NCBI GenBank assembly: GCA_964394435.1
Contig: CAYMXN010000002.1
Coordinates: 78,196-142,195 of the forward strand
Direction of reading: 5' to 3'
DNA: 64,000 nucleotides
From: an uncultured Candidatus Saccharibacteria bacterium
GTDB lineage: Bacteria; Patescibacteriota; Minisyncoccia; UBA6257; 1-14-0-10-44-23
Shown in pieces: positions 8,301-58,252 of this stretch; the first letter of the stretch is position 1; each line of letters opens with the position of its first letter. The notes beneath the pieces were generated by a model that made no database searches, had not been told where the DNA came from, and saw only the letters and a program-made list of their open reading frames with translations. The translations under genes and the position numbers were made by a program.

Positions 8301-8934
8301 ACTTTACGAACAACGATGGGTCTTTAGTTGGGCGATACGCTCCCGGCTGACCAAGCTCGTGGCTACTAAGCGGAGTCTGGCATCGCGTACACCATGGAAC
8401 GGTGCGAAGCATCTTCTTAAGCAATCCGGTTTTATTTATCTCTGATAAGAGCCACCAGATACTTTCGATGTAACGGTTTTCGTAGGTTACATACGGGTTC
8501 TTCATATCAAGCCAAAAACCCATACGCTCGGTGCTCGCCTCAAACTCACTGCGATAGCGCCACACAAGCTCCTTACACTTTGCGTTAAACTCGGCGATAC
8601 CGTACTTTTCAATTTCACTCTTATTTTTCATTCCGAGCTCCTTTTCAGTCTGGAGCTCGACCGGCAAACCGTGCGTGTCCCAGCCGGCTTTACGTGGAAC
8701 GTTAAAGCCACGCATCGTTTTGTAGCGCGGAATGACATCCTTAAAGGCACGCGCCTCGATGTGGTGAATACCCGGCATACCGTTGGCGGTTGGTGGGCCT
8801 TCGAAGAATACAAACTTCTTCCCTCCAGCGGAGTTTTTCTTTAGTGATTGTTCGAAAATTTGATTCTGCTTCCAAAAGGCTAATATCTGATCCTCTAACT
8901 CTGGCAATGAGAAATTTTTAAGATTTTTTAACAT
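5383..8934 (-). CDS. ileS: Isoleucyl-tRNA synthetase with an embedded histidine-phosphatase (PGM/SixA-like) domain.
   Basis: Class I HIGH variant PPTANGMPGIHH and KMSKSKGN. A CP1 editing region is present. The IleS-type zinc knuckle reads WECADCEK...ACPSCKK, followed by DLHRPFVDEV...VLDVWLESG. About 190 aa between the two CxxC pairs carry the RHAEAQHN, SPYARTKETA and IVGHG motifs of the histidine phosphatase superfamily. Confidence 0.85.
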   Translation of the reverse strand: MLKNLKNFSLPELEDQILAFWKQNQIFEQSLKKNSAGGKKFVFFEGPPTANGMPGIHHIEARAFKDVIPRYKTMRGFNVPRKAGWDTHGLPVELQTEKELGMKNKSEIEKYGIAEFNAKCKELVWRYRSEFEASTERMGFWLDMKNPYVTYENRYIESIWWLLSEINKTGLLKKMLRTVPWCTRCQTPLSSHELGQPGAYRPTKDPSLFVKFELKEAGTSKKKPKTYFLAWTTTPWTLPGNLALAINPRLTYKKFEVKKVDTGTIEYLYAYNTPAAREGYEVKELEAVIGKKLVGKKYVPLYPLKAKHPKLKLADLYKVRAGDFVSTEDGSGIVHIAPSFGEEDFKLMGIKEGLPMTIDDQGKMGKGYPGAGKYIKQADSDVVADLIKRGLLYQQGEIEHEYPHCWRCNSALVYMVRSSWFIEMSKLRDQMLKNNQKINWTPANIKEGRFGEWLKDLKDWSISRNRYWGAPIPIWECADCEKHIVISGRQELNDRAVSHNRFFAVRHAEAQHNVENWIASGVETAKNASHLTEKGVRQAENIAGKLKKEKIDLIICSPYARTKETAKIIAKATKAKVIIDKRIGEIQVGEYNRAMVPAYHAFFNNKLERFTVRPKGKAETLTEVRKRMMDFFNDVNKKYSNKRIVIVGHGDPLWLLDASLRGMTNEEALASDYYPAHDHHKELTVNNWPVNREGALDLHRPFVDEVHIACPSCKKPMQRIKEVLDVWLESGAMPYASVNFPYALTKDGKRPTSEEAKQLFKQLDYPADYIAEAVDQTRGWFYTLLAMSTALGLEPAYKNVICLGLVLDKNGIKMSKSKGNIVDPMMIMKKYGADVLRWYFYTINDPGDSKRFTEDDLAKITRKFILIIYNSFVFWNSYGKHESARKGEPKIKHVLDRWILASLSTLTKEVTTKLDAYQIGEAGRLIEAFADDLSRWYIRRSRDRFQSGSTDEEQDHEAASHTLRLALETISRLLAPFMPFFSDALYQSVGGAQKSVHLADWPTFAEEGDEEDKLLPQKMAKVRALAAEALALRAELKLKVRQPLASATIKKGAFEEYADDELMAILKDEINVKKILFAEQLPEGKGIILDTELTAELKEEGMVRELVRTIQGLRQDAGYQVGDEIVLMIEAADKLFDVVQRNSIQLKKAVGAGQLEMKKSEKFDIQLESKLDDAPIWIGLRKI

Positions 8935-8961
8935 ATGAAATTTAACGGATAAGTTACGAAT

Positions 8962-8990
8962 TATAAATAAAAAACCGCAAGCTAGTGCGG
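8962..8990 (-). terminator. Intrinsic terminator on the minus strand just upstream of the ileS start.
   Basis: Hairpin ccgcaagctagtgcgg followed by a T-run on the minus strand. Confidence 0.5.
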
Positions 8991-9132: not shown

Positions 9133-9723
9133 TCACTCTCCGAGAAACGACTCAAGCTTCCTGCGACGAACTGGGTGCTGAAGCCTTCGGACTGCTTCGA
9201 GGCATAGTTGCCTAACCCGCTCTCGGCTTAGACCTATTTCTCGCCCGATTGCCGCATGGGTCATTCCTTCAAGAAAATGCTTGCGAACAATCAAAGCATC
9301 CTTTGGGTTGAGCGTTCCAAGCACCTTCCCGATTAATGCACGAAGCTCCTTCTGCTCGGCTCCTTCACTCGCCGGCCCGGCGGGAAGAGTAGCAAATGCA
9401 GTCGCGCGCCCCAACATCCTCACAGGAATAGCTCGCGTCGCCTCGAAGGTCTTCGGCGTGGTTAGGAACTCTTGCGTGAAGACTTTCTCCGGCCAAAGCT
9501 CGGAAACGCTCTTCCTGGTTAATTCGAAGAGCTTCGCCGCCACCAGCGGACTGACCTCCTTCGGTCTTTTCCGCATATTGACCCACCGCCCGAATGTGAC
9601 ATGATCCACTCCGACGAATTCTGCGCCCTGCTTTTGCGTCCAGCCACGCCTGCGCAACGCCTCCCAGAGGATGCCGTGCTTAAGCTGTGCGCGGATTGCG
9701 ATCGGAAACCTTGATTCGGACAT
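9133..9723 (-). CDS. GC-rich cassette gene encoding a DNA-binding protein with an XRE-like HTH and a sigma-70 region-4-like HTH.
   Basis: The C-terminus THAAIGREIGLSRERVRQLCLEAVRRL matches sigma70 region 4.2. The N-terminal WTQKQGAEFVGVDHVTFGRW is HTH-like. GC content is high against the surrounding DNA. Its own SD is GGAGG with a 5-nt spacing, and a TTGACG-N17-CACAAT promoter lies at about 9745-9775 on the minus strand. Confidence 0.55.
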   Translation of the reverse strand: MSESRFPIAIRAQLKHGILWEALRRRGWTQKQGAEFVGVDHVTFGRWVNMRKRPKEVSPLVAAKLFELTRKSVSELWPEKVFTQEFLTTPKTFEATRAIPVRMLGRATAFATLPAGPASEGAEQKELRALIGKVLGTLNPKDALIVRKHFLEGMTHAAIGREIGLSRERVRQLCLEAVRRLQHPVRRRKLESFLGE

Positions 9724-12248: not shown

Positions 12249-12254
12249 CACATG

Positions 12255-12580
12255 GGGACGCCAGGCTTTGACGGCGCGTCTTGTGTGTATCATGCAAGCC
12301 GAGCAGAATTAACTCGTAAATCTGATTCAAACTTACTAAACTGCCAACTTTACTCGCGAGAGCAATTTTGCTTTAGCCTACGCCTAGCGTAAGCCATCGG
12401 CCTATCGACATCCCATAGGTAGATCCCGGTGTTATATTGGGAATAAGAATCGCTTAGTTGAACACGCGCGGCGATTACGAAAATCCAGGTGTTCGGAAGA
12501 TCTCACGTTTTGAGACCTAAGCTTGTAGAGTGATACATATGAACGCATCGGACGGGATTTCAATATCCCCGTCTCCACCA
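12255..12580 (+). ncRNA. ssrA: Transfer-messenger RNA (tmRNA).
   Basis: The 5' end GGGGACGCCAGGCUUUGACGG forms a tRNA-like acceptor/D region. The 3' end GGACGGGAUUUCAAUAUCCCCGUCUCCACCA is a T-arm plus acceptor ending in CCA. The internal reading frame ...GCC AAC UUU ACU CGC GAG AGC AAU UUU GCU UUA GCC UAC GCC UAG gives a candidate tag peptide ANFTRESNFALAYA. The gene is adjacent to smpB. Confidence 0.8.
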
Positions 12581-12646: not shown

Positions 12647-13375
12647 ATGAGCATTAAAGGAATATTATTCCCCTTTCGTAAACGCTATAAAGATCTCCAG
12701 TCTAAATGGTGGCACCGCTTACTCGTGGTTGCTTTCGCAGTCTTTCTCTGCTTCTATGCATATCTTCTAGCGATTGATTTGATAGAAGACAGCTCGCATA
12801 CGCCACGAAATACAAACTATGTATCTCTAGCGCAGTTCACTAAAGAATACTCTGGATCTGGTAATGCTATTAAACCGTTTTTAGCTAAAAGTTGGACGGT
12901 TGCATGCCTTCAACGCAATACTTTTTCTGACCTATATACCGCTAGCTTTGGCAATGAATTAGTCTCTGGAAATGGCAAATTTAATTTTAGTGGAGGAGAT
13001 TTTTTGGCTAACGCATCATACTGCAACGCGAATCTTAGAGAAAACATCCCTGATTTTATTCGACAACTCCAAGAGAAAGCTCCAAATGTTGAAAAGATGT
13101 ACAAAAATCAAGGAGTTGATTTAACTGAGGCCTTGAACACCTACATTGATCGAAATCCGAGTAATTTATGTATAATTCACCCATCTGTAAAATGTGGCAT
13201 CAAAAACTTGAGCGATCCAGATCAAATCGTCATATTTAGCCCATCCTACAAATTAAATCTCTATGTACTGGGGGCAGGGGTTATAATTTTGCGTATCTAT
13301 TTATTGAGCCTATTTATTCAATTCCTATACTATTTCGGACTCCTCTATGTAATTCTTGGCAAAGAAAATGGCTAA
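12647..13375 (+). CDS. Hypothetical membrane protein (AT-rich island gene 1).
   Basis: An N-terminal TM and C-terminal TMs. The SD is AAGGAGG. The region is AT-rich relative to its neighbours. Confidence 0.5.
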   Translation: MSIKGILFPFRKRYKDLQSKWWHRLLVVAFAVFLCFYAYLLAIDLIEDSSHTPRNTNYVSLAQFTKEYSGSGNAIKPFLAKSWTVACLQRNTFSDLYTASFGNELVSGNGKFNFSGGDFLANASYCNANLRENIPDFIRQLQEKAPNVEKMYKNQGVDLTEALNTYIDRNPSNLCIIHPSVKCGIKNLSDPDQIVIFSPSYKLNLYVLGAGVIILRIYLLSLFIQFLYYFGLLYVILGKENG

Positions 13376-13670
13376 TTGGCTCAAACAAAATTGGTTTAAG
13401 ATAAGTTTGATAGGCTGCTTGTTAATTTACCTTATGCTCGCAATTAGTTCTCAAGCGGGTAAATTTTCCCCCGGCAAGTGCGTACAGGGACTGGACGGGT
13501 ATATATGGCACATAAATAGATTGAATATGGGAGAATATTACTTAATGGGATGGCAAGGTAAGGCATGGGGCAATGAGGTTAAGTTGGATAAAAGCATACT
13601 GGAAAGAAAAACTATTTCGGGAATCCCCGAATATCACGAAATAGAATGCCTTGAATTTAACCCAAGTTAA
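13356..13670 (+). CDS. Hypothetical small secreted or membrane protein.
   Basis: N-terminal hydrophobic segment; overlaps the upstream ORF by 20 nt. Confidence 0.4.
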   Translation: MAKKMANWLKQNWFKISLIGCLLIYLMLAISSQAGKFSPGKCVQGLDGYIWHINRLNMGEYYLMGWQGKAWGNEVKLDKSILERKTISGIPEYHEIECLEFNPS

Positions 13671-13770
13671 AAGACTGTCCTCGACAGAATAGACGATAAT
13701 CGCTCACGCTCCCTCATGAACTGATTCCAAAAGACTGCTCCTGAAGACACCAAAAAGGAAGGATTCATCA

Positions 13771-14031
13771 GTGTTTCCCCTTTTTGCCTATTATAGGGGG
13801 GAGAAAAATAAAAATACAACATCCCGAATGACTAAAAAAGAATTTTTTTGGATCACGATCTATCTCCTGGCTTTAGGTGTTGCTGCGTACTTCGACAACA
13901 AGCACGATAAAGAGTATGAGGAATTTCAGTCTAGGATAACGCCAGAAATAAGAGAGCAATTTAAAAGATGTATTAATGATACTAATAGCTATAAAGACTT
14001 CCAAGAATGCGAAAGTAAAATAAAATTCTAA
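13771..14031 (+). CDS. Hypothetical small membrane protein.
   Basis: Single TM FFWITIYLLALGVAAYF. Confidence 0.4.
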   Translation: MFPLFAYYRGEKNKNTTSRMTKKEFFWITIYLLALGVAAYFDNKHDKEYEEFQSRITPEIREQFKRCINDTNSYKDFQECESKIKF

Positions 14032-14492
14032 TGTCTCCTGCTTTCGCTAAGCTTTTTAAATTGACCATAATCCCCTTGGCAATTTTCAGTTGCGTCTACG
14101 CAACACTCAACCAGCTACTGCCGGAACCAATTCAAGGCTGGACATCAGAAAAGACATCGCTTGAAATGGAGCCTGAAAATATCAATCTGACTAGCGTCAA
14201 GATAATTGATCTCGCAGGATATTTATCTGCTGTTGATGAAGTTGGAGATTCTCAATTTAGTACGTTTGTTTCAAAAAATTTAGACGAACGCTGTCCTTTC
14301 TATGAGCCAAATGGGATCGCCTACCGAGATTGTCTATATGCTTTTGCGGAAGAACAGCGAGCTTTATTTAAGGGTAGCGAAGCTAAAATTGAAGAAGTTG
14401 AACAGTATTGCAATTTAATTAGCGAAAAGTATTTTCCGAGCCTTAAAGGGATTGAACTCTATAATTGGTGCCTGGCGTATAAATTCAGCTAG
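14031..14492 (+). CDS. Hypothetical secreted protein.
   Basis: Signal-peptide-like N-terminus; the start overlaps the stop of the previous ORF (ATGTCT/TAATG overlap). Confidence 0.45.
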   Translation: MSPAFAKLFKLTIIPLAIFSCVYATLNQLLPEPIQGWTSEKTSLEMEPENINLTSVKIIDLAGYLSAVDEVGDSQFSTFVSKNLDERCPFYEPNGIAYRDCLYAFAEEQRALFKGSEAKIEEVEQYCNLISEKYFPSLKGIELYNWCLAYKFS

Positions 14493-14534
14493 CAGACCCG
14501 TTGATTTAGCTAGGATTTGTGCTAAAATCTTCGC

Positions 14535-15041
14535 ATGTTACCAAACCGCATCAATAATCAGATTACCGCACCAGAGGTGCGCGTTATCGATGAGAACGAC
14601 GAAAACGTTGGCGTTTTAGCGATCGCTGAAGCTTTGAAGGTTGCGAAAGAGCGGGGACTCGACTTGATTGAGATTTCAGCTGAAGCAAAGCCGCCGGTTT
14701 GTAAGATTATCAGCTTTGACAAGTTCCGCTATCAGCAGGAGAAAAAGCTCAAGAAGCAAAAAGCGGCGCAGAAAAACACTGGTGGCAATAAGCAGGTGCA
14801 AATCAGTATCCGTGAGGCGAAAAACGACCTCATTATGAAGGCTAACCGTGTAAATGAGTTTTTGAGCGAAGGAAACAATGTGGAAGTTCTACTCCAGCTT
14901 CGTGGACGCGAAAAAGGCAATCGCGATTTCGCCCGCAAGAAAGTCGATGAGTTCTTATTGATGATTACGCCAAATCACACGATTATCGGCGGACCTTCGA
15001 ACGGAATGAGCGGTATTAGCACGCTTTTGGCTAAAAAGTAG
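14535..15041 (+). CDS. infC: Translation initiation factor IF-3.
   Basis: PNRINNQITAPEVRVIDENDENVGV matches the IF-3 N-domain. The gene order infC-rpmI-rplT is conserved. A TTGATT-N16-TAAAAT promoter lies upstream. Confidence 0.85.
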   Translation: MLPNRINNQITAPEVRVIDENDENVGVLAIAEALKVAKERGLDLIEISAEAKPPVCKIISFDKFRYQQEKKLKKQKAAQKNTGGNKQVQISIREAKNDLIMKANRVNEFLSEGNNVEVLLQLRGREKGNRDFARKKVDEFLLMITPNHTIIGGPSNGMSGISTLLAKK

Positions 15042-21518: not shown

Positions 21519-22619
21519 ATGCCGAAAAAGATCTCTCGCGTAAGCGAGCTGAAGGTGCAGCAAGTCACCTCCCGCATCGCATCGATGGCGCAGATTGTCA
21601 TCGAACTCCTCCCTGACGGAAGCGTGACTACGCACTGGAATGCGACTCCGCAGATACATCTTCTCGTGGTTATTGGTCCTGGGCGCGCCTGGGATTACGA
21701 CTACCAGCGAGCGATTCTTTGCGAGATTGGACTCCACCGGACTCGTCCTTACCGTCAGGCGTACGCTATCGGCTCGGGAACGAGTCGAATGAAAACGGGT
21801 AAGCGGCCACTGGTGATTCCGAAGCGTACAAAAAAGTTCTTCTTAACGGACGAGCAGCACCTACGCGTAGCTCCAGCGATTTTCGCAGCCCTTCAGGATT
21901 GGGCCGACCTCTGCGTCGCTCCGTGGAAAAATCGAACCTTCGCACTCCCCCAGCAGCGTCTCTACTATCTACGCAGAGGACGCCGAACTGCTGAATCTGT
22001 CTCAGTTAAGGAGTGGAAACGTGGCATCCGCGTCCATGTGAGTCCGCTCGACGAGCTTCTTCTGGCTGACTTCTATGCAGCCGAAGCTCGACTAAACACT
22101 CAACGACAGGACTGGCGGACGAGCATCGCCAAACGGTTAAGCATGATGCTCTCTGATACCAGAGGTGCGCACGTGCGACCGCTCGAGCAGCTCAAGCCGT
22201 TTGCTAACGCGGTAGAGTTCCTAACCAAGAGCAGCTATCCTCGCCATCTCATCTTTGGACTTAGATCGACACTCGGCAAGCGTCTTCGTGAAGACATCTT
22301 CCCTAAGCTCCTCCCGAGGGTCTTTAACGGCGACTTGCGTTATTACCGAGAGATGAGCAAGTGGGAAAGTCGAGCGTTAGACGGCCTTAGAGAGCGCGTT
22401 GGCGAACTTCAGGTGTTCTACGTACCAGAGCGCGAAGCAGTAGGTGGCCCGCAGCACAGCGGAGTTACGTTTGAGCTTTGGGCTCACCCGGAGCTCTATG
22501 TGAACACTCGGCCGAAGCCACCCGAGGGCGACTTCGCTGATCGAGAGTCTACTAGCACCGAAGAAACCACAAACTCACCCGGGTTGAACTTTGACCCCGA
22601 GGGTGAGATTCCCTTCTAA
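21519..22619 (+). CDS. GC-rich cassette gene encoding a hypothetical 366-aa protein.
   Basis: GC composition is high against the flanks. Its own SD is AGGAGG 9 nt upstream, with a TTGACT -35-like box upstream and an intrinsic terminator downstream. No recognisable domain. Confidence 0.5.
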   Translation: MPKKISRVSELKVQQVTSRIASMAQIVIELLPDGSVTTHWNATPQIHLLVVIGPGRAWDYDYQRAILCEIGLHRTRPYRQAYAIGSGTSRMKTGKRPLVIPKRTKKFFLTDEQHLRVAPAIFAALQDWADLCVAPWKNRTFALPQQRLYYLRRGRRTAESVSVKEWKRGIRVHVSPLDELLLADFYAAEARLNTQRQDWRTSIAKRLSMMLSDTRGAHVRPLEQLKPFANAVEFLTKSSYPRHLIFGLRSTLGKRLREDIFPKLLPRVFNGDLRYYREMSKWESRALDGLRERVGELQVFYVPEREAVGGPQHSGVTFELWAHPELYVNTRPKPPEGDFADRESTSTEETTNSPGLNFDPEGEIPF

Positions 22620-28991: not shown

Positions 28992-29026
28992 ATGAAGTAT
29001 GAATTATGAGTTATGAATTATGAAAA
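28992..29026. repeat. Array of five tandem 7-bp iterons (ATGARTT), 5 nt upstream of the RNase start codon.
   Basis: ATGAAGT ATGAATT ATGAGTT ATGAATT ATGAAAA. The same architecture recurs at 36271-36305, 39269-39303 and 44321-44355. Confidence 0.7.
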
Positions 29027-29067
29027 GATACTAAGACTCGAAAAATCTATTAATTCAATTATAGCGC

Positions 29068-29108
29068 AAATTAAAAAGCCCCGCGCGACGCATAGCATCG
29101 CACGGGGG
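29068..29108 (-). terminator. Intrinsic terminator of the GC-rich cassette gene (minus strand).
   Basis: Hairpin ccccgcgcgacgcatagcatcgcacgggg followed by CUUUUUAAUUU on the minus strand. Confidence 0.65.
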
Positions 29109-29165
29109 CAAAGGGGTTCAGGTGATCAAGGTCTTAGGGACCACGATAACCAGAACCCGAGGGAG

Positions 29166-29657
29166 CTACTTACGGAAGACCAACTCGTGCTTGGGAGACC
29201 AGAGGGTACCGCCGAGATCGGCGTAGTCCGCGCCGAGCCATCGCCCATATACGCGGCGATCGACGCAGATCACGCGCCAGTGGCCGTTCGAGTCCTTGAT
29301 CGGCTCCATCGCCAACCAAAGGACCTCGTTCATCGGCTGGTCGAAGCAGCCGAGGCGAATCGCGACGCCGTCACTTGGCAAGCAGGGCTTCAAGCCCCGC
29401 TCTTGTCCGCGCTTCAGGATCTCGCGCAGTTCCACCACCTCAGTGAATCCGAGCTCATTCACCCTAAGGCGAATGAACTCCACCGTCTCTGCCGTCGTGG
29501 GCAGAGGCACCTTCCCGAGGATTTCGGCCGCCCAGTCTCCTAGTCTCATCCCGGCCCCCTGGAGCGCCAAGCGAATCTCACCGGCGTCTTTGTAGACGGT
29601 CGTCAGAGTCTTCCACGCGCTGACGAAGGCGATGTCAGGGATGTCAGGATAGTTCAC
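29166..29657 (-). CDS. GC-rich cassette gene encoding a hypothetical 163-aa protein.
   Basis: GTG start with SD GAAGGAG; high GC. A consensus TTGACA-N17-TATAAT promoter and a long 5'UTR hairpin lie upstream; a terminator lies downstream. Confidence 0.55.
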   Translation of the reverse strand: MNYPDIPDIAFVSAWKTLTTVYKDAGEIRLALQGAGMRLGDWAAEILGKVPLPTTAETVEFIRLRVNELGFTEVVELREILKRGQERGLKPCLPSDGVAIRLGCFDQPMNEVLWLAMEPIKDSNGHWRVICVDRRVYGRWLGADYADLGGTLWSPKHELVFRK

Positions 29658-29721
29658 GGAAACTCCTTCTCGCCTGAAAGGCGGAGGTTTCTGGCTGCCC
29701 GCCAGTTGAGAGGCGTAGGCG

Positions 29722-29771
29722 TTTTGCCACAGCAGAAAAAGGCCTTAGAGCCCTTTTTTGCTGTGGCAAAA
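29722..29771 (-). promoter_or_regulatory. Long imperfect-palindrome hairpin in the 5'UTR of the cassette gene.
   Basis: ttttgccacagcagaaaaaggcc-ttagag-cccttttttgctgtggcaaaa lies between the promoter and the SD. Confidence 0.5.
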
Positions 29772-29804
29772 CGTGCAAGTAGTCTTATTAAATATCTAAG
29801 ATAA

Positions 29805-29833
29805 ATTATAGCACTTTTTGTGCTATTTGTCAA
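29805..29833 (-). promoter_or_regulatory. Consensus sigma70 promoter TTGACA-N17-TATAAT on the minus strand.
   Basis: The reverse complement reads cattgacaaatagcacaaaaagtgctataattt. Confidence 0.65.
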
Positions 29834-29885
29834 TGCCTCATAACCCCGTTAGAACTAGGATATTAAACGAAATAATACGTACGAA

Positions 29886-31103
29886 TTATGAATGATGGTA
29901 CGAGAACAGCGCCTCTTCGGCGATTGCGCGCTCACTCCAAGCTATTTTTTTACCCTTCGGACCGTAGAACCACTCCTGACTCCCCATGCCCGTGATCGCA
30001 ACCACATCACTTACCTTAGCAAGTTGGATTGCTTTATGAATCGCCTCTTTCCGGTCAGATACTACATGAGCTTTTTCTGGATGTTGCATACCCTTTTTCA
30101 TCTCCTCGATAATCGTGCGCGGATCTTCGTCATATGGGTCATCGCTAGTCAGCACTACTTCATCACAAAACTCTTCGGCGATAGCGGCCATCTGTGGGCG
30201 CTTCCACTTGTCCCTTCCCCCACCTGCTGAGCCAATAACTCCAATCAGTCGCTCTCCTTTTGTTTTTAAAAATACATATACTGCGCGCAATGATTCTGGC
30301 GTGTGTGCATAATCAATAACAACAAGTGGTTTATTTGGATGGGAGATAAACTCGAGCCGCCCTGGTACACCCTTAAATTCGCGAAACACCCTATCGATAA
30401 CCTCCTGCGCAACGCCAATATTCTGAGCGATAGCACTTACGAGCGCCGCATTTTCTAGGTTAAAATCGCTCAACAACCATGAGCTTAACTTAATTTGCTT
30501 ATCCTGCGTAAGACGCTCAACATCTTTGCGTCCATACCAAATTACTTTTCCACGACTGACCGCATCTTCAAAAAATGGCCCGTGCGGACTATCTGTGTTG
30601 ATGAAAAAAGTTTTTTCTAGCTTTGGCGATTTTTCATCGACATATTTAAAGAAACTTGTTTTTGCCTCTCGATAATTTTCGAATGACCCATGGCTCTCGA
30701 TATGCTCGGGGTGCAGACAGGTCATCGCAGCTACATCAAACTGAATAAACCTATGTCGATGCTGAACTACTCCCTGGCTCGTCACCTCGATAATCGCATA
30801 CGTACATCCTGCGTCGGCGGCTTGGCGTAAAAACTTTTGAATATACATGCGCCCCGGCATTGTGTTGCCTGTGCGATTTTTTTCAGTCTTCCCTGCTATT
30901 TTTACGTGTACTGAAGAAAGTACGGCGACTTTATATCCAGCCGCAGTTAAGACGGCGTGTAAGAGTTCTGCGGTAGTCGACTTCCCTTTTGTTCCCGTGA
31001 TACCAATAACGGTTAACTCTTTAGAGGGGTTGCGGTAATACAAATTCCCAAACCAAGCGAGAAAGTGATGATATCTATTTTTCGCAAATGAAATTGGACT
31101 CAT
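29886..31103 (-). CDS. Mur ligase family protein (MurE-like).
   Basis: P-loop GITGTKGKSTT, a Mur ligase central domain, and a C-terminal DDPYDEDPRT that resembles the MurE DNPR motif. Confidence 0.55.
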   Translation of the reverse strand: MSPISFAKNRYHHFLAWFGNLYYRNPSKELTVIGITGTKGKSTTAELLHAVLTAAGYKVAVLSSVHVKIAGKTEKNRTGNTMPGRMYIQKFLRQAADAGCTYAIIEVTSQGVVQHRHRFIQFDVAAMTCLHPEHIESHGSFENYREAKTSFFKYVDEKSPKLEKTFFINTDSPHGPFFEDAVSRGKVIWYGRKDVERLTQDKQIKLSSWLLSDFNLENAALVSAIAQNIGVAQEVIDRVFREFKGVPGRLEFISHPNKPLVVIDYAHTPESLRAVYVFLKTKGERLIGVIGSAGGGRDKWKRPQMAAIAEEFCDEVVLTSDDPYDEDPRTIIEEMKKGMQHPEKAHVVSDRKEAIHKAIQLAKVSDVVAITGMGSQEWFYGPKGKKIAWSERAIAEEALFSYHHS

Positions 31104-33180: not shown

Positions 33181-33636
33181 CTATAATGTTGTTAACGCAC
33201 TCCGAACCTCGTCAGGCAGAATCTTAGATTTCCCATCTTCTCCGACAGAAACGACTACAAAATCTATAGTAGCTACAAGCGTGCCATCCTCCTTGAACAT
33301 CGCTTGATGATAAGTTGCACTTTTTGCTCTTGGTGGCATCACCTTAGTAAGAACAATCGCCCGCTCACCAATCTTCATTTCGTCAACATATTCAATGTTG
33401 AGTTTTTTCGCAAAAAGACGAATTCCAAACTCCTTCAGTAAATAATCCCTGCTAATACCACGCTCTTCTTGAGATGATTTTTGAGCCTCTTCAAAAATCT
33501 TAATAAACCCAAGATAATTTAAATGGCCGTTTTCATCAATTAACTCTGTCGTTATTACTCGCTCATATCGAATGCCCCACTCCGCGGTCTCTTTTTCTTT
33601 TGGAATATCGGGAAACTTTGTTGGATTTTCTACCAT
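33181..33636 (-). CDS. Hotdog-fold thioesterase-like protein.
   Basis: 4HBT-like core HLNYLGFIKIFEEA; 151 aa. Confidence 0.45.
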   Translation of the reverse strand: MVENPTKFPDIPKEKETAEWGIRYERVITTELIDENGHLNYLGFIKIFEEAQKSSQEERGISRDYLLKEFGIRLFAKKLNIEYVDEMKIGERAIVLTKVMPPRAKSATYHQAMFKEDGTLVATIDFVVVSVGEDGKSKILPDEVRSALTTL

Positions 33637-35354: not shown

Positions 35355-36261
35355 TGTGGGTTTGGCATTTCGGGCAGAAATGCGCCGATCTCCCTCCTAC
35401 TGTAATCCTTTTGATAGGAGTTGCGCAACGTTGACAAGGTTCATCTTCTCTTTGATAAACAAGTCGATGTCCCGTATACCCACCCTCTTTGCCACTAGGG
35501 TCACGAAAGTCGGAAGTCGAGGTACCACGCAACTCAACAGCCTTTGATAGAACTGCGCGCATCGCTTCATAGATAGCGGACAGTTCGTCGGTCTTGAGTT
35601 TATTCGCCGGGCGGCTTGGATGGACGTGGGCGCGCCAGAGGATATCGTCGGAGTAGATGTTGCCGATACCGGCCAGTACATATGGGTCCATCAGCACCTG
35701 CTTAATTGGTCGGTGTTCGTGCGTGATGATATCTGCGAAAATCTCCTCGGTAAGCTTTGGGTCGAGCGCGTCTGGCCCGAGTTCGGCGAGCTCGGGGAGT
35801 GATTCGATTTGTTCGCATGGCCCGAGCAGCACCTTTGCAAACTTGCGCACATCAGAAAGTCCGAGCATCTGCCCGTTATCTAAATACAAAATCAGATGCA
35901 CGTAGCCGTTATATGAGTCTTCGATTATCTCTCTTGGTTCGAGTGCGACCGCCCTACCGCCTACAATCTCCCACTTCCCAATTAAAAAGTGGCCGGTCAT
36001 TTTTTGATGTACAAGTAGAAGTTTGTCGCGCGTAAGGTCGATGAGGATATTTTTCCCTTTGCGACGGGCGCCGATTATTTTTTCACCAATGATATCTTTT
36101 TGAAACTTTGTGACTGCGGACTCTGATATATGCAGCCGAGATTGGTTGAGTGGATCTTTAATCATCTTCGGCCAGTCAAACCAAACACCGACAATAACGC
36201 GCCCGGTGAGTCGGTCGCGCAAATCTCTTACCACAGTTTCTACTTCGGGAAGTTCGGGCAT
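35338..36261 (-). CDS. mutM: Formamidopyrimidine-DNA glycosylase.
   Basis: N-terminal MPELPEVETV with the catalytic Pro2, and a C-terminal zinc finger CQRCATPIKRITVGGRSAHFCPKCQ. The track ORF extending to 36309 reads through the iteron array and is unlikely. Confidence 0.85.
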   Translation of the reverse strand: MPELPEVETVVRDLRDRLTGRVIVGVWFDWPKMIKDPLNQSRLHISESAVTKFQKDIIGEKIIGARRKGKNILIDLTRDKLLLVHQKMTGHFLIGKWEIVGGRAVALEPREIIEDSYNGYVHLILYLDNGQMLGLSDVRKFAKVLLGPCEQIESLPELAELGPDALDPKLTEEIFADIITHEHRPIKQVLMDPYVLAGIGNIYSDDILWRAHVHPSRPANKLKTDELSAIYEAMRAVLSKAVELRGTSTSDFRDPSGKEGGYTGHRLVYQREDEPCQRCATPIKRITVGGRSAHFCPKCQTHNGKKS

Positions 36262-36270
36262 AAGGGGGGG

Positions 36271-36305
36271 ATGAGTTATGACGTATGAATTACGAACTAT
36301 GAATA
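36271..36305. repeat. Array of five 7-bp iterons, 10 nt upstream of the mutM start.
   Basis: ATGAGTT ATGACGT ATGAATT ACGAACT ATGAATA. The first 26 nt are identical to 39269-39294. Confidence 0.7.
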
Positions 36306-36371: not shown

Positions 36372-36400
36372 TTGACATTATATAGAATAGAATGTATAAT
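36372..36400 (+). promoter_or_regulatory. Consensus sigma70 promoter TTGACA-N17-TATAAT.
   Basis: ttgaca-ttatatagaatagaatg-tataat. Confidence 0.65.
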
Positions 36401-36481
36401 ATATTTGCTCGTAACCTAGCACCTTTGCCCATTGGCGCTGGTGCGCAATCCTACCTCCAAGAGACAGGAAAGGAGTTCCCC

Positions 36482-36970
36482 GTGAAGAAGATCCGGATCG
36501 GCAAAAAACTCGCACTACTCCTCCGCGCGCTTCCGAAGATTATCGAGGCCGCCCTCAAAGAGCGGTTCCGAGAGGTTGATGAATGGGAGTTCTATCATGT
36601 CGCCAGTCGAGCCGAAGCCCCTCCCGAATACAGAGAGCCTCTCGCGGACAATGCAACAGAGGAGGAGGTTGATGAGTGGCACATGCGCCAAAATGATTGG
36701 CGCTTCGATGACTACCTGTGTACTGCCTCGATCTCCTACAACGGGCACATCCAGGTGCGCGGCAAGATCGAAATCGAGGAGTGGTTCGCGATCGGATATG
36801 ACCCGATTGTGAACGCGACTCTATGGATCTGCCTGCCCGACGGAACGCAGATTCGCAAGGCGTTCCGCTATGACGAGCGGACTAGCCACCTCGCCGAAGA
36901 AAATGATGAGAAGATTCCGGAGAGCCCGCCGGAAGAGATCCCCTTCGACAAATCGAAGAGTGCAGCGTAG
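36482..36970 (+). CDS. GC-rich cassette gene encoding a hypothetical acidic 162-aa protein.
   Basis: GTG start with SD GGAAAGGAG 7 nt upstream; high GC. The ATG at 36392 overlaps the -10 box and is unlikely to be the start. A terminator follows. Confidence 0.5.
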   Translation: MKKIRIGKKLALLLRALPKIIEAALKERFREVDEWEFYHVASRAEAPPEYREPLADNATEEEVDEWHMRQNDWRFDDYLCTASISYNGHIQVRGKIEIEEWFAIGYDPIVNATLWICLPDGTQIRKAFRYDERTSHLAEENDEKIPESPPEEIPFDKSKSAA

Positions 36971-36980
36971 GAAGTCACGC

Positions 36981-37015
36981 CCCCGACCAGACAGCTGGTT
37001 CGGGGCTTTTTTATT
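36981..37015 (+). terminator. Intrinsic terminator.
   Basis: ccccgaccagacagctggttcgggg followed by cttttttatt. Confidence 0.7.
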
Positions 37016-37105
37016 CGAATGAGAGGAGAAGCGGGGCGTGATCTGAAACCTCGTCAGGCAAAATCTGAAAGTCATTTACCTGCACCCCTGGAGATACGAA
37101 GATAT

Positions 37106-37152
37106 AGTCAGGAAATCTCTGACCACGGTTTCTACTTCAGGAAGTTCGGGTA
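37106..37152 (-). repeat. Duplicated fragment of the mutM 5' end (about codons 1-15).
   Basis: About 40 of 45 nt are identical to 36215-36261: the fragment reads ...aaatctctgaccacggtttctacttcaggaagttcgggtat against mutM ...aaatctcttaccacagtttctacttcgggaagttcgggcat. In the copy ATG has become ATA. Confidence 0.6.
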
Positions 37153-37161
37153 TGAAAAGTG

Positions 37162-37914: not shown

Positions 37915-39240
37915 CTACTCCGCCTCGTACACGCCGACTTCTTTTTGAGGGACTAACGATGGGTCGGTCGGAATCGTAAAGTGAAACTCGGTGCCACGCC
38001 CTACTACTGATTGCGCCCAAATCTCGCCGCCGTGCTGCTGAATAATGTTTTTAACCAAGTATAAGCCAAGGCCGGAGCCGGTTGCGTCGAGCTTAATCGC
38101 CGCTTCGGTACGGAAGAACTTCGTAAATAACTTTTTAATCTCTTCGGGCGTGATGCCAACGCCAGTATCTTTGATTACCACTTCGACAAACGGCTTGCTG
38201 ACAATTTGGTGAATGCTGACTACGACTTGGCCGTTTTCCACATTGTACTTAATCGCGTTATCAATCAGGTTGGAAAATACAATTCCCATCTTAGCCTGGT
38301 CGAGTAGAACCATAATCGGCGTGGCCGGTTTTTCGAAATATACGTTTACTTTATACTGCTTGGCGATTGGAGCCGCCTCCTCAACCACCTTGCGCGTGAA
38401 GTCGACGAGGTCAGCATTTTGATAGTTATAGCCAAACCTCCCCTCTTCGATTTTTGCCACATCTAAAAAGTCGTTGACGATACGGGATAATTTCTGGGCA
38501 GCCATCGCGCCGGTTTGCGTGAGCTCGATACGATCCTGATCTGAAATACCAACTTGCTGAAGCTCTTGAAACGCCCAGTTTACTGCGGTTAGGGGCGTAC
38601 GAAGTTGGTGGCTCGTAATGGTAACAAACTCGCTCTTTGCTTTGAGGAGATTCATCTCGCGCGTGCGGTCGTGAATTACTTTAATCACACCCGTCTGCTG
38701 CCCATTTTTATCAGTCATCGGCATCGTCGCCACACGTAGTTGCATAAACGGTTGCTCAAACACAATGTCGACAATTTGCGGATACGCGCCCGGGTCGCTG
38801 CGCTTAATAATCACTGGAGCGAGCGATGGAAATAGCACCTGGGAAAGCAACTTGTGTTGCGGGTTTTGATTTGCGGATTCGAGTGCGAACTTTTTTCCCA
38901 CCATCTCCTCTTGTGGAATGCGGAACAACGTTGACGCGGCTTTATTAAAAATATGTACCGTAAACTCGTTGTCATGCACGATAACTGCATCTTCAAGACC
39001 GGTAATAACTGTGTCGAGCATCTGGTGCTCGTTTTTCAGCTCGAAATTGCTACGTGCGGTGCTAAGCGAACCGGCAAATAACAGAACTCCAGCGCCGATT
39101 AAGACAACGAGTCCGATGAGCCCCCAGATTGGTGGGAGATAGAAAAAGTCGATGATCGCCATTGCTAAAAATAAAACGGCGAAAATCCAAACGACCCTCA
39201 TCTCTGGCATTTTTGCGTATTGAGTAAATCCACGCTTCAT
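37915..39240 (-). CDS. Sensor histidine kinase with a PAS domain.
   Basis: Two TM helices, a PAS-like region, the H-box HQLRTPLTAVNWA, and the N/G boxes of the HATPase domain. No adjacent response regulator. Confidence 0.75.
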   Translation of the reverse strand: MKRGFTQYAKMPEMRVVWIFAVLFLAMAIIDFFYLPPIWGLIGLVVLIGAGVLLFAGSLSTARSNFELKNEHQMLDTVITGLEDAVIVHDNEFTVHIFNKAASTLFRIPQEEMVGKKFALESANQNPQHKLLSQVLFPSLAPVIIKRSDPGAYPQIVDIVFEQPFMQLRVATMPMTDKNGQQTGVIKVIHDRTREMNLLKAKSEFVTITSHQLRTPLTAVNWAFQELQQVGISDQDRIELTQTGAMAAQKLSRIVNDFLDVAKIEEGRFGYNYQNADLVDFTRKVVEEAAPIAKQYKVNVYFEKPATPIMVLLDQAKMGIVFSNLIDNAIKYNVENGQVVVSIHQIVSKPFVEVVIKDTGVGITPEEIKKLFTKFFRTEAAIKLDATGSGLGLYLVKNIIQQHGGEIWAQSVVGRGTEFHFTIPTDPSLVPQKEVGVYEAE

Positions 39241-39268
39241 ATACTTATATTTAGGATAACACAGGAAA

Positions 39269-39353
39269 ATGAGTTATGACGTATGAATTACGAGTTATGA
39301 GCGACGAGAAAATCTCAGTCATAATTCATAACTCTTACTTCGTTATTCATTAC
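39269..39353. repeat. Inverted pair of five-iteron arrays separated by a 15-bp spacer.
   Basis: The forward array is ATGAGTT ATGACGT ATGAATT ACGAGTT ATGAGCG (39269-39303). The inverted array is TCATAAT TCATAAC TCTTACT TCGTTAT TCATTAC (39319-39353). It sits between the kinase start and the stop of the exonuclease gene. Confidence 0.65.
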
Positions 39354-40219
39354 AGCTCCTCCAGCTGACGAATCAGACTGCTAAACGCGTATTTTTCAAA
39401 AAACGCCTTCAGCGCAACTTTATCAAACGGAAGCACTTTCGCGTCTTCAATTGAGTCGATAAAAATGGGCGCGTTGCGATGAATCGTTGCGAGGTCGCGG
39501 CTCATCAGGGCGATTTCTTTTTTGCCCTCGAACTTTTTTGCAATTTTCGGATTAACAATTACGAGATTGTCATAAATCTCCTCGATGGTTTTAAACTCCT
39601 GAATCAGTGGTGTGGCGGTTTTTGGACCCACCCCTTCTACGCCTGGAATATTATCCGAGGTATCACCAATTAATCCCTTGAGCTCAATGAGTTGTGCTGG
39701 TGCGAGGCCGTACTCCTCTTTCACGTGCGCCTCGTTATACTCAACCGTCTCATTACCGCCATTACGCATCAAGCGAACTACCACGTGGTCATCATCGACA
39801 AGCTGAAGCAGATCGCGGTCTCCGGAAAGAATCACCACCTGCGTACCTGGTTGGCGCTTGAGTTTTTCAGCGAGCGTGCCGATCAAGTCGTCAGCCTCAA
39901 AACCCGGCAAATCAAACTGTTTGATATGAAACGCGTCAAAGACTTCGCGGATTTTCGCGAGCTGACTCACGAGGTCGTCTGGCATCGGCTGGCGATGTGC
40001 CTTATACTCTTCGTATTTCTCTTTACGAAATGTCCGCTCTTTGCGATCAAAACACGCGATAATATAGTCAGGATTAATATCGTGATAAATCTTCAGTAAG
40101 AGTCCGGCGAGGCCGTATACCGCGCCGACCGGCTCATTTTCCGGACTAGTGAGTGGCGCCATCGCGTGATACATCCGGTAGATGAGTGCGTGTGAGTCAA
40201 TTAAGAGGAGCTTCTTCAT
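39350..40219 (-). CDS. 5'-3' exonuclease (FEN / Pol I 5'-nuclease domain family), stand-alone.
   Basis: N-terminal MKKLLLIDSHALIYRMYHA and a downstream HhH2 region; 289 aa. Confidence 0.75.
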   Translation of the reverse strand: MKKLLLIDSHALIYRMYHAMAPLTSPENEPVGAVYGLAGLLLKIYHDINPDYIIACFDRKERTFRKEKYEEYKAHRQPMPDDLVSQLAKIREVFDAFHIKQFDLPGFEADDLIGTLAEKLKRQPGTQVVILSGDRDLLQLVDDDHVVVRLMRNGGNETVEYNEAHVKEEYGLAPAQLIELKGLIGDTSDNIPGVEGVGPKTATPLIQEFKTIEEIYDNLVIVNPKIAKKFEGKKEIALMSRDLATIHRNAPIFIDSIEDAKVLPFDKVALKAFFEKYAFSSLIRQLEEL

Positions 40220-44320: not shown

Positions 44321-44355
44321 ATGAATTATGAAAAATGAGTTACGAGTTATGAGAA
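44321..44355. repeat. Array of five 7-bp iterons, 7 nt upstream of the pilB-like start.
   Basis: ATGAATT ATGAAAA ATGAGTT ACGAGTT ATGAGAA. Confidence 0.7.
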
Positions 44356-44418
44356 GAAGGCGGGATTGCTATAAGTATACGGCTTTTGTTGTGATGATTG
44401 AAGTAATTGCGCTATATA

Positions 44419-44447
44419 TTGACATTTATATTAATCTGTGCTATATT
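44419..44447 (+). promoter_or_regulatory. Near-consensus sigma70 promoter TTGACA-N17-TATATT.
   Basis: ttgaca-tttatattaatctgtgc-tatatt. Confidence 0.6.
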
Positions 44448-44491
44448 ATTTTTGTTCTTCAACTTCTAACCCCCGGAGGCAATAGCCTTTT

Positions 44492-44998
44492 ATGCACGAC
44501 CTATCTCCCTGGTGGAAGGGCTTCATCGCCGGCGGACTGTTCATCGGCTGGGCGGTGGCTTGCATCGCGATGACCGTCTGGTTCTTGTACGTACCGTCGC
44601 TGCGAGCCATGGCGTCCAAGACTCTGAAGCGCGCCAGCAAGGCGCTCTGCGTTCTCGCCCTCGGGCTGCTCTCGAGCGGGTGTTCCGCTGTCAGCAGCCG
44701 GGTCAGCCTGGCGACCAACATCCCGCTTATCCGTACCGAGGGGACGATCGTCCGGGTTGTCAACTCGACCGGTGACACGTTGCGCGTACGCGCGGATGGC
44801 CACCCGGAGTTCGCGCTCCCGGCGGGCGAGGAGGTTCCGGTCCTGTTCTACGGGCCGGACTACAGTGCCCACGCATGGGGCAGTAGTGCGACCATCGTCG
44901 TCCTTGGTGCGAGCGGCGCGGCGACGCGATCGGTGTCGGTCGCCTCATCGGGAGTCAACTCTGAGGCGTGGATCGTCGGTCACGACGACCTACGCTAG
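44492..44998 (+). CDS. GC-rich cassette gene encoding a membrane or lipoprotein-like 168-aa hypothetical protein.
   Basis: Two N-terminal hydrophobic segments, the second ending LLSSGC (lipobox-like). SD GGAGG. High GC. A terminator follows. Confidence 0.5.
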   Translation: MHDLSPWWKGFIAGGLFIGWAVACIAMTVWFLYVPSLRAMASKTLKRASKALCVLALGLLSSGCSAVSSRVSLATNIPLIRTEGTIVRVVNSTGDTLRVRADGHPEFALPAGEEVPVLFYGPDYSAHAWGSSATIVVLGASGAATRSVSVASSGVNSEAWIVGHDDLR

Positions 44999-45006
44999 CT
45001 CCCTGT

Positions 45007-45042
45007 CCCCCACCAACTCGTTGGTGGGGGCATTTTTATTTT
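45007..45042 (+). terminator. Intrinsic terminator.
   Basis: cccccaccaactcgttggtggggg followed by catttttatttt. Confidence 0.7.
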
Positions 45043-53620: not shown

Positions 53621-53662
53621 AAAACATCCCCTGCCGGAGTCGACAGGGGATGTTTTATTTTA
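53621..53662. terminator. Bidirectional terminator.
   Basis: aaaacatcccctgccggagtcgacaggggatgtttt. Confidence 0.7.
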
Positions 53663-54844: not shown

Positions 54845-54846
54845 AT

Positions 54847-55830: not shown

Positions 55831-55844
55831 ACGAGTAGTTTGAG

Positions 55845-56483
55845 TTAATTTCTCTTTTCAAAAGTAGCTCGTTCATTTGTATTAATTCTATCCTGGATGG
55901 TTATGGCGATCGGATTTTCTATTTTCTCGAGTTGAAGTATGCCTGGCAGGCTTCGTTCTTCCTGGGTGATGTATTTCCCTTGTATAGCCCAGGTAAACAA
56001 TAAATCGGCGAGAGATTGGGTGTTAAAGAAGAATGGGTTAGCAGTATAGACATAACGTCCAGCTATTTCTTTTAGGGAGATGCTTGCCGATTGATTTGAG
56101 AGAGGTATACCAACCGCCCCTTCGACATTTTTCAGGTTGTAACCCTGAATTAGCGCGCGAACAGAGTAGCTTTTGTCGAACGTTGTGTCAGTGAGAAATG
56201 TGGCGGTTGTCATGCCGACTCCCGAGCCGATGAGGTTGTTATTTACGTACCAGGCAATTTTCTTAGTGCTAATATCTATTACCTTATTGTTATCAATGAG
56301 CATTACGGCGAGGGAGATTTTACTTCCTTTGATTGGGAGGGCTTTGCCGACATACCAGGTTGGTGTGTATGTGTTTGTTTGCCAAGTAATAATCGCAGTT
56401 GGCTCGGATGTGGTTTGTGCTAAAGCTGGCGTTGTATTAAACGCAAGAAACAGAATAGCAAGGCTCAAAAGAAAGCTTTTCAT
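55845..56483 (-). CDS. Secreted hypothetical protein.
   Basis: Signal peptide MKSFLLSLAILFLAFNTTPALA. Confidence 0.45.
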   Translation of the reverse strand: MKSFLLSLAILFLAFNTTPALAQTTSEPTAIITWQTNTYTPTWYVGKALPIKGSKISLAVMLIDNNKVIDISTKKIAWYVNNNLIGSGVGMTTATFLTDTTFDKSYSVRALIQGYNLKNVEGAVGIPLSNQSASISLKEIAGRYVYTANPFFFNTQSLADLLFTWAIQGKYITQEERSLPGILQLEKIENPIAITIQDRINTNERATFEKRN

Positions 56484-58251: not shown

Positions 58252-58252
58252 A

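Follow-up and report, generated by a model that had tools for sequence, protein, structure and literature searches.

Heptad repeat arrays abutting start codons in a Parcubacteria genome as candidate unstructured leaders for Shine–Dalgarno-independent initiation

We analysed a 64-kb stretch of contig CAYMXN010000002.1 (hereafter the window, whose coordinates are used throughout), which homologues of its PilB protein place in Parcubacteria, a lineage of the candidate phyla radiation (CPR), near Candidatus Harrisonbacteria. Short tandem arrays of a 7-bp unit, ATGARTT on the plus strand and AAYTCAT on the coding strand, recur in this stretch just upstream of start codons. Tentatively, and with less than even confidence, we read these arrays as a lineage-specific family of heptad blocks, ∼35–43 bp long and made of five AAYTCAT units, which would form the 5′ leaders of genes that are neither leaderless nor preceded by a Shine–Dalgarno (SD) sequence. 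As G-poor and unstructured leaders they may allow SD-independent initiation on a few leadered mRNAs, a proposal that we put forward with the same reserve. We base it on the anatomy, position, orientation and base composition of the arrays, on the absence of RNA structure in them, on their stability between samples and on their generality in Parcubacteria, all of which were observed directly.

Direct reading of the sequence bore out four arrays that an earlier note on this DNA had described, each consisting of five contiguous heptads and each preceding a gene on the minus strand. Array 1 (28992–29026) is followed after 5 nt by the start codon of a beta-CASP/RNase J-like gene (ATG at 28986); its plus strand is ATGAAGT ATGAATT ATGAGTT ATGAATT ATGAAAA, and its sense strand, TTTTCAT AATTCAT AACTCAT AATTCAT ACTTCAT, has no G in 35 nt. 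Array 2 (36271–36305; plus strand ATGAGTT ATGACGT ATGAATT ACGAACT ATGAATA) is separated by 9 nt (CCCCCCCTT) from the ATG of mutM (36261), array 3 (39269–39303; plus strand ATGAGTT ATGACGT ATGAATT ACGAGTT ATGAGCG) by 28 nt from that of a histidine kinase gene (39240), and array 4 (44321–44355; plus strand ATGAATT ATGAAAA ATGAGTT ACGAGTT ATGAGAA) by 7 nt from that of pilB (44313), and these measurements agree with the range of 5–28 nt given before. A full fifth array that does not appear in the earlier note is inverted (39316–39350, minus strand): it reads ATGAATA ACGAAGT AAGAGTT ATGAATT ATGACTG on the minus, or sense, strand, begins at the TAA stop of a 5′–3′ exonuclease gene (39350–40219) and lies 12 nt from array 3, the two being the 5′ and 3′ arms of a hairpin. 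The three-unit motif scan of the window that recovered this array also returned the two degenerate copies expected near 8948–8968 and at 29881–29894. The first, a 3-unit copy (8949–8969, minus strand; TATTTAT AATTCGT AACTTAT), lies 14 nt 5′ of the ATG (8934) of the isoleucyl-tRNA synthetase gene ileS and downstream of both a GC-rich gene (9133–9723) and a hairpin followed by a T-run; the second, a 2-unit copy (29881–29894, minus strand; TCATAAT TCGTA), overlaps the TAA stop of a Mur ligase gene on the far side of the first of three GC-rich cassettes described below. The arrays are not random, since ATGARTTATGA with at most one mismatch has 19 matches compared with 2.5 ± 1.5 in shuffled sequence, and none of 100 shuffles reached 19. 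Tandem Repeats Finder (TRF) describes 28992–29024 as a period of 7 with 4.7 copies and 88% unit matches. No array of another heptad was found in the window by a scan for arrays of any unit. Five is the unit count in all five full arrays, and the units are imperfect.

Counting the ileS copy, all five arrays in the AAYTCAT sense orientation within the window lie 5–28 nt upstream of a start codon. The five array-bearing upstream regions contain 1, 1, 3, 4 and 5 G per 45 nt, compared with mostly 6–12 for the other 54 genes, and, with the exception of one leaderless promoter, no other upstream region of the window is as poor in G. Folded singly together with their flanks, the arrays do not outdo shuffled sequences (z = +0.39, +0.33 and −0.41), they stay unpaired in minimum free energy structures, and Rfam 15 has no match covering them at the gathering threshold or at E ≤ 1. 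It had been claimed that the heptads give stop codons in all three frames of the mRNA and ATG in all three frames of the opposite strand; the second part is true of all four arrays, and the first stands for array 1 only, arrays 2–4 having stops in two frames. The opposite orientation would place five AUGs before the gene, which would leave the sense orientation as the only tolerable one. Small antisense open reading frames (ORFs; MKYEL and similar, following GGAG at arrays 1 and 4) were considered and discarded because of their shortness and because arrays 2 and 3 lack them. Two further ideas were also set aside, namely a Rho utilisation site, which an excess of C over G with a YC dimer every 7 nt would call to mind, and pairing to 16S rRNA.

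These genes stand apart from the usual signals of their host. A TAnnnT box, often in the form TGnTAnnnT, starts 12–15 nt before the ATG of 20 of the 59 window genes with a peak at −12, which points to a leaderless architecture; the usual promoter of the host is an extended −10, TGnTAnnnT, and its −10 boxes lie 6–11 nt before the ATG. Many of the other window genes overlap their upstream neighbour or follow it by 1–3 nt. As the earlier note had observed, no SD-like 4-mer precedes any array gene. Such a 4-mer is found in only 10 of the 59 genes, five of which are GC-rich cassette genes, and hence SD absence is a property of the genome and not specific to array genes. The RNase J-like, mutM, histidine kinase, pilB and ileS genes have in addition no leaderless promoter at the usual place (the four genes behind the full arrays have no TAnnnT there) and no closely preceding gene. 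Upstream of two of the arrays there are boxes from which a leader could begin, at 66–77 nt from the ATG. A candidate −10, TATAAT (29058–29063, minus strand), is found between array 1 and the terminator of cassette 1, 71 nt 5′ of the ATG of the RNase J-like gene; it has no good −35 and, if used, would place array 1 inside a 5′ untranslated region (UTR) of ∼65 nt. A putative pilB promoter, TTCAAT-N17-TATACT (44374–44402, minus strand), lies upstream of array 4 and would give a 5′ UTR of ∼54 nt; the same hexamer pair is present at the leaderless pilB of two relatives (L163 and L166; L numbers denote further contigs).

To place the arrays in a wider context we used 80 pilB loci from metagenomes, on Parcubacteria contigs totalling ∼1.1 Mb, and counted arrays of at least four units. 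Period-7 arrays occur 60 times in intergenic DNA and 18 times in ORFs, compared with 11 and 38 for period 6 and 1 and 1 for period 8, and their density is ∼1 per 14 kb. For 24 of the 60 intergenic ones a start codon follows within 30 nt, and 15 are close to a stop; read in the sense of the downstream gene, the 24 start-proximal arrays have 151 C and 58 G. AATTCAT-type arrays are also found in L134, L157, L158, L163, L166, L177 and L178, but the units vary between genomes and loci (CTTACTT, CTAAAAG, TAATCAC, ACTTTCA, GATTCTA, CTCACTA and others). Most of the ∼60 Parcubacteria pilB upstream regions are leaderless, with TAnnnT 6–8 nt before the ATG. The closest relatives (L121, L126 and L130) have pilB leaders of 30–50 nt that are G-free and preceded by −10-like boxes 50–80 nt upstream, and two of these three leaders are built from other heptads (TACTACG and CTCACTA). 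L132, L152, L177 and L121 each have a good −10 upstream (TGTTATAAT in two of them) and an array that takes up the 5′ UTR as far as the ATG; in L132 and L152 heptads occupy the whole space from the extended −10 to the ATG. Judged by their sequence, the window arrays resemble this group, with a −10 upstream and the array in the 5′ UTR.

The arrays also resemble each other beyond the shared unit. Arrays 2 and 3 are 94% identical over 32 nt, including an identical core of 25 nt (one less than the 26 nt reported before), and arrays 1 and 4 are 86% identical over 43 nt, a stretch that takes in the flanks TTGGAG and AAGA, which are not periodic; the arrays are thus not independent products of slippage. 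Two further independent assemblies (L124 and L125) have array 1 unchanged, and three other assemblies, drawn from two run series, have array 2 unchanged; hence these arrays are not hypervariable. The organism is present in SRR13076512–14 and SRR14271353/60. Same-strain Logan contigs added ∼5 kb, including one more inverted pair, so that this organism has six to seven array sets in ∼70 kb. The additional pair (L467, 3411–3493) lies between a UvrD gene and a KsgA (RrnaAD-family) gene, with its AAYTCAT sense array 11 nt before the KsgA ATG. In four cases, namely window 39269–39350, L467 3411–3493, L158 and L134, the layout is the same: a stop codon, (ATGARTT)n, a loop, (AAYTCAT)n, 2–28 nt and an ATG. 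In the window the pair gives a long, AU-rich, imperfect stem followed by TTTT; it was not called by a terminator scan, and the predicted hairpin of 39225–39360 (−27.6 kcal/mol, z = −1.47) is not significantly better than those of shuffled sequences. The pairs in L467, L158 and L134 have no T-run.

On mRNAs that lack an SD, a local lack of structure suffices for initiation, and ribosomal protein S1 binds A/U-rich unstructured leaders. For the array genes we favour, as said, the cautious reading that transcription would start at a −10 box ∼55–75 nt upstream of the ATG, and that the array would then be a G-poor, C/U/A-rich stretch of mRNA which is unable to fold, ends a few nucleotides before the AUG and may act as an open landing site for the 30S subunit without an SD. 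Its reader might be S1 or a cold-shock-type protein with an oligonucleotide-binding (OB) fold, at ∼7 nt per domain. The 7-nt periodicity would most likely be a trace of origin, by slippage and then copying between loci, and not a code. Where an inverted array follows an upstream stop, it would pair with the second array, and translation of the upstream gene could open the hairpin. The earlier note had suggested an initiation element or a translational insulator in the place of the ribosome-binding site. The initiation element is the better supported part of that suggestion, given the G-depletion, the lack of structure, the −10-like boxes upstream in two cases and the heptad leaders of L132 and L152; an insulator with stops in three frames could apply to array 1 only.

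Several points weigh against this reading. The upstream −10 boxes have no good −35 and no TG extension, and the arrays themselves provide equally good σ70 matches (8 of 12 positions). Arrays are not always in a translated leader, since in some relatives the heptad is itself the −10 (L134, L137, L157 and L190) and in L206 an array precedes a tRNA gene. Four arrays are paired with an inverted copy, and unless something opens the hairpin this contradicts the term ‘unstructured’. Both the orientation and the G-depletion could be explained, with no positive function at all, if purifying selection acts against structure, SD-like runs and upstream AUGs. Moreover, all array genes of the window are on the minus strand, so the orientation relative to the gene and that relative to the chromosome are inseparable. 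A stronger version of the same proposal, which we consider improbable, is that the heptad block is a portable module for SD-independent initiation, one that S1 or a cold-shock protein (Csp), as a protein with an OB fold, would read in a register of 7 nt and that would be copied in front of genes that have been stripped of their native 5′ context, for example by an upstream cassette with its terminator, the inverted partner after an upstream stop coupling translation to that of the neighbour. If true, this version would provide a mechanism for the whole class of start-proximal heptamer repeats, including TAACTGA and the Nostoc heptamers.

A serious, if doubtful, alternative to unstructured leaders is that the arrays are tolerated repeat DNA with no function of their own, which arose by slippage, was copied by recombination or as a small palindromic element resembling miniature inverted-repeat transposable elements (MITEs), and survived where it is harmless, that is, in intergenic DNA and without a sense AUG or an SD-like run. 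According to Mrazek 2007, as cited in PMC4679880, heptanucleotides are the most abundant class of long simple sequence repeats (SSRs), which that study put down to polymerase slippage. AT-rich heptad arrays of any unit are common both in viral contigs and in genomes: in a pattern scan of one genome per species, ATGARTT arrays occur at no fewer than 120 loci in at least ten phyla, mostly Bacteroidota and Cyanobacteria. Among the matches listed, Nostoc, Desmonostoc, Stigonema, Scytonema and Microcystis carry (ATGAGTT)n or (ATGAATT)n, further taxa are Ignavibacteria, Lentisphaerae, Chloroflexi, Acidobacteriota, spirochaetes and one Gottesmanbacteria, and the arrays are mostly clean (ATGAATT)n or (ATGAGTT)n of 4–23 units, 137 of 139 being intergenic. 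In viral contigs ATGARTT has 95 stretches, compared with 61, 37 and 63 for three column-permuted, composition-matched controls; because permuted units are also common, the wide distribution mostly reflects the abundance of AT-rich heptad SSRs and not a conserved element. In the matches listed, a gene boundary lies within 15 nt of the 5′ (ATGA) side in 68 of 137 cases by crude longest-ORF calls (46 same-strand stops and 22 opposite-strand starts) and within 15 nt of the other side in 16. Arrays interrupted by a short GC-rich palindrome (e.g. cccgcctaccggtcaggcaggcg) are present in L121 (3940–3995) and in the L030 flank, that is, in a Parcubacteria relative and in a Saprospiraceae genome, which suggests very small elements inserting into heptad tracts.

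Also in favour of repeat DNA of this kind, the units differ between relatives at the same gene, namely pilB, and within genomes; arrays 2/3 and 1/4 are mutual copies, as a dispersed repeat would lead one to expect; and the two inverted pairs resemble small palindromic elements. In compact genomes, moreover, a 35-nt array necessarily abuts genes. Nevertheless the constant five units, with their imperfections, are unlike fresh products of slippage, and the sequences are unchanged in three to four independent assemblies. Further points against it are that in the cassette-side spacers of ∼105–180 nt the array always occupies the host-gene end, 5–9 nt from the ATG, that the sense strand is strongly depleted of G across 24 arrays, and that the genes behind arrays have no other recognisable initiation signal.

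Slightly more doubtful is the proposal that the array is itself a core promoter. Whatever its register, a tract of (TTCATAA)n has a −35-like TTCATA and a −10-like CATAAT spaced 17 bp apart; with 35 bp, five units would be just enough, and transcription would start 2–4 nt before the ATG to give a near-leaderless mRNA, as is usual for this organism. Array 1 reads TTCATA-N17-CATACT-N9-ATG and array 4 reads CTCATA-N17-CATAAT-N11-ATG, so that −35/−10-like hexamers end 9 and 11 nt from the ATG, where host −10 boxes lie 6–11 nt before it. In L134, L137, L157 and L190 the last heptad is itself a TAnnnT −10 at the leaderless position (−12), and the cassettes with their strong terminators have cut array genes of the window off from upstream transcription. 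In L206 (2690–2745) CTTTATT/CATTATT units form an array directly 5′ of a tRNA gene, and TATTCT stands 7 nt ahead of the mature 5′ end; any action of this array has to be on the level of the DNA or promoter. The divergent gene there is faced by a purine-rich array in the opposite orientation. A σ70 scan (at least 9 of 12 matches and 16–18 bp spacing, with a −10 that has A in second and T in sixth place) found no site in any array, however, and no window array contains TAnnnT. The best matches found by hand reach 8 of 12 and carry C instead of T at −12; G-free arrays cannot supply the extended −10 TGnTAnnnT of the host; neither array 2, whose CATAAC is 13 nt from the ATG, nor array 3, at a distance of 28 nt, is a good fit; and arrays between co-directional genes with an inverted partner are unlike promoters. 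Since 23 = 3 × 7 + 2, the promoter-like spacing of hexamers is a built-in consequence of the repeat. The promoter reading keeps some weight all the same, because the arrays hold 8-of-12 hexamers at the distance required for a leader of 2–4 nt.

It is unlikely that the arrays are an operator or iteron array, with one heptad per dimer, that co-regulates the RNase J-like gene, mutM, the histidine kinase gene, pilB and ileS. Contiguous heptads in direct and inverted orientation at gene 5′ ends, the recurrence of one unit at six to seven loci in ∼70 kb with no other heptad arrays in the window, the constant unit number, and a helix-turn-helix (HTH) protein with σ70 region 4 encoded beside one copy (9133–9723) would suit such a site. 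The omega repressor of pSM19035, a ribbon-helix-helix (RHH) protein, binds WATCACW heptads, and ToxR binds TTTTGAT heptads at ctxAB; like these operators, with H-NS at the latter, the arrays are contiguous 7-bp units, direct and inverted, just upstream of genes in roughly 3–10 units. Those are duplex sites with a known binder, whereas here the unit is another one, the strand composition is asymmetric and relatives use many units. Indeed, many unrelated heptads at equivalent places in relatives, sometimes several per genome, argue against one specific binder, and the G-poor sense strand is not expected of a site in duplex DNA. The downstream genes form no coherent regulon, and Pfam scans of the genes flanking the arrays found no RHH or Rep domain such as goes with omega-type operators or with the 17–22-bp iterons of plasmids.

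Arrays and GC-rich genes come close together in the window, and an account that connects them has to be considered. Six genes are GC-rich and bear an SD (5–265, 9133–9723, 21519–22619, 29166–29657, 36482–36970 and 44492–44998), with a GC content at third codon positions (GC3) of 0.59–0.83 compared with ∼0.48 for the host. Three of them have a perfect or near-perfect TTGACA-N17-TATAAT promoter and a GC-rich terminator and are inserted between host genes. Cassette 1 (29079–29833, minus strand) consists of TTGACA-N17-TATAAT (29833–29805), a structured leader, an SD, an ORF (29166–29657; GC 0.62, GC3 0.80) and a terminator (29107–29079); cassette 2 (36372–37012, plus strand) of TTGACA-N17-TATAAT (36372–36400), an SD, an ORF (36482–36970; GC3 0.69) and a terminator-like hairpin (∼36985–37012); and cassette 3 (44419–45030, plus strand) of TTGACA-N17-TATATT (44419–44447), an SD, an ORF (44492–44998; GC 0.66, GC3 0.83) and a terminator (45007–45030). 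The three products match no Pfam, NCBIfam or PADLOC family, and the cassette 1 protein has only two homologues among 5.8 billion proteins. The GC-rich genes look like foreign ORFs under host-type expression signals, and the relative L121 has similar GC-rich inserts at other sites. The ∼150-nt leader of cassette 1 (29655–29804, minus strand) is conserved in the only two homologous loci found (L206, 2851–3003; L207, 2275–2438), with a conserved start, AGTTATTTAATAAG, followed by a hairpin of ∼22 bp. The L207 leader keeps the pairing, 16 of 40 predicted pairs being doubly changed across just three sequences, and the leader, which has no Rfam match, may be an undescribed cis-regulatory RNA.

That the arrays are an attachment site, as had been raised in the earlier note, or a junction scar, the cassettes inserting into heptad arrays or carrying them at their ends, we regard as very improbable. 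An array does lie between the cassette and the next host gene in four of the six cases, cassette 1 is flanked by two and five heptads in direct orientation, and insertion has remodelled the junction of cassette 2. There the first 41 nt of mutM (36221–36261) are duplicated on the far side of the cassette (37113–37153) with 90% identity and ATG changed to ATA, 8 nt after the stop of the upstream gene; mutM was thus formerly closely coupled to that gene, and by this evidence would now rely on the DNA between cassette and ATG, that is, on the array. Nearby, 37047–37066 is a 20-nt copy (95%) of another gene junction (33205–33224), and together with the mutM duplicate it resembles what an insertion of Campbell type, or an illegitimate one, would leave behind on parting mutM from its former upstream partner. 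The arrays do not, however, flank the cassettes directly, as had been stated: 50–70 nt of terminator- or promoter-like DNA lie between them, including the cassette 1 terminator and, in two cases, −10-like boxes. In the four cases the array is always at the host-gene end of the spacer, 5–14 nt from the ATG, and heptads occur on both sides of cassette 1 only. Two of the six cassettes have no array, arrays exist without cassettes (39269–39350; L467, 3411–3493), and in L206 and L207 the homologous cassette has no ATGARTT array at its borders. No significant similarity of the cassette borders was found beyond the arrays themselves, and no recombinase, integrase or transposase was found near cassettes or arrays. 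We reject an attachment site on the spacing, the lack of shared borders and the independence of arrays and cassettes; integron attC or another such site was likewise discarded, there being no shared inverted-repeat borders beyond the arrays and no recombinase. Least probable of all is a phase-variable SSR that tunes expression by unit number, for which the precedent (PMC8262952) is the 7-bp repeats upstream of hmw1A in Haemophilus influenzae: tandem 7-bp repeats do lie here between a possible promoter and the start codon, but the unit count is five in every full array, no difference is seen in array 1 among three assemblies or in array 2 among four, from two run series, and imperfect units (88% matches) suppress slippage.

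Of the repeats described so far, the nearest to these arrays are the direct repeats of the heptamer TAACTGA found in marine Beggiatoaceae and in some Cyanobacteria and Bacteroidetes (MacGregor 2015, PMC4679880). Those repeats, of which there are 169 sets in BOGUAY, lie in forward orientation a few nucleotides upstream of starts, over the expected ribosome-binding site and with no SD; they carry sense-strand stops, have no predicted RNA structure, and a translational role via S1 or Csp has been proposed for them (PMC4679880). The window arrays share every positional feature, being tandem, intergenic, in one orientation, start-proximal and without an SD. In the same register the unit here is TAAYTCR (TAACTCA, TAATTCA and TAACTCG), TAACTCA being one base off. 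The arrays differ further in that the host is a largely leaderless member of the CPR (Parcubacteria) whose relatives use many other heptads, in that they have imperfect units and a fixed five-unit size and look like mutual copies, and in that some are inverted pairs, or hairpins, which lie between a stop and a start. Heptamers close to start codons are on record for Nostoc as well (bioRxiv 10.1101/2022.06.06.494920). Our searches of the literature, in which CPR was paired with leaderless or SD signals and those on repeats were not CPR-specific, returned no report of start-proximal heptad repeats in CPR.

The short tandemly repeated repetitive (STRR) sequences of cyanobacteria and the long SSRs of Mrazek et al. 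2007 are likewise tandem heptanucleotides, almost exclusively intergenic and abundant in certain lineages, and in intergenic Parcubacteria DNA period 7 exceeds periods 6 and 8. STRR arrays are usually cleaner and longer, whereas the window arrays are short, degenerate and consistently beside gene starts; we know of no fixed relation of STRR arrays to start codons, and the classical STRR units CCCCAGT, TTGGTCA and CAACAGT differ from the unit here. Unstructured A/U- or CA-rich enhancer leaders, such as the omega leader of tobacco mosaic virus with its direct repeats, support S1-dependent, SD-independent initiation. The arrays are similarly G-poor, repeat-built and free of structure directly 5′ of an AUG that lacks an SD, which is only an analogy of proposed function between unrelated sequences. 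Two loci in this organism also recall repetitive extragenic palindromic (REP) sequences, bacterial interspersed mosaic elements (BIMEs) and MITEs, having an imperfect palindrome of ∼80 bp between co-directional genes with arms that are dispersed copies; they differ in their heptad-built arms, mostly present singly, in the lack of target-site duplications or of a relationship to a transposase, and in their weak AU-rich stems. The window arrays are members of the broader class formed by heptanucleotide SSRs and STRRs, and what is added here is the fixed five-unit blocks copied between loci, the hairpin pairs and the leaderless host.

Three other features of the window were noted. The isoleucyl-tRNA synthetase (5383–8934, minus strand) has a histidine phosphatase (His_Phos_1) domain inserted at residues 503–669, between the halves of its catalytic domain. 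A tmRNA gene (12254–12580) is followed by a low-GC block (12647–15041; 0.34–0.46) whose first gene (12647–13375) has a strong SD, and the block may be an element integrated at the tmRNA gene. A cluster similar to type IV secretion or conjugation systems, with TrbL_3, PrgI, TraC-like and DUF87/VirB4-like ATPase genes, occupies 53660–63987 (minus strand) and is also seen in L467.

The arrays are no new kind of system, but they are a compact and well-defined test case for start-proximal heptamer repeats. They extend such repeats from Beggiatoaceae, Cyanobacteria and Bacteroidetes to the CPR, where arrays are frequent, strongly intergenic, strand-asymmetric and often abutting starts, in genomes that are largely leaderless and poor in SD sequences. 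Should the arrays prove to be only tolerated repeats, they would be a warning not to take regular short repeats beside genes for regulatory sites. For annotation, they mark true start codons and gene boundaries. The CPR thus offers a clean setting in which to study the translation of leadered mRNAs that have no SD, and to ask whether a 7-nt periodicity is a by-product of mutation or a recognition code.

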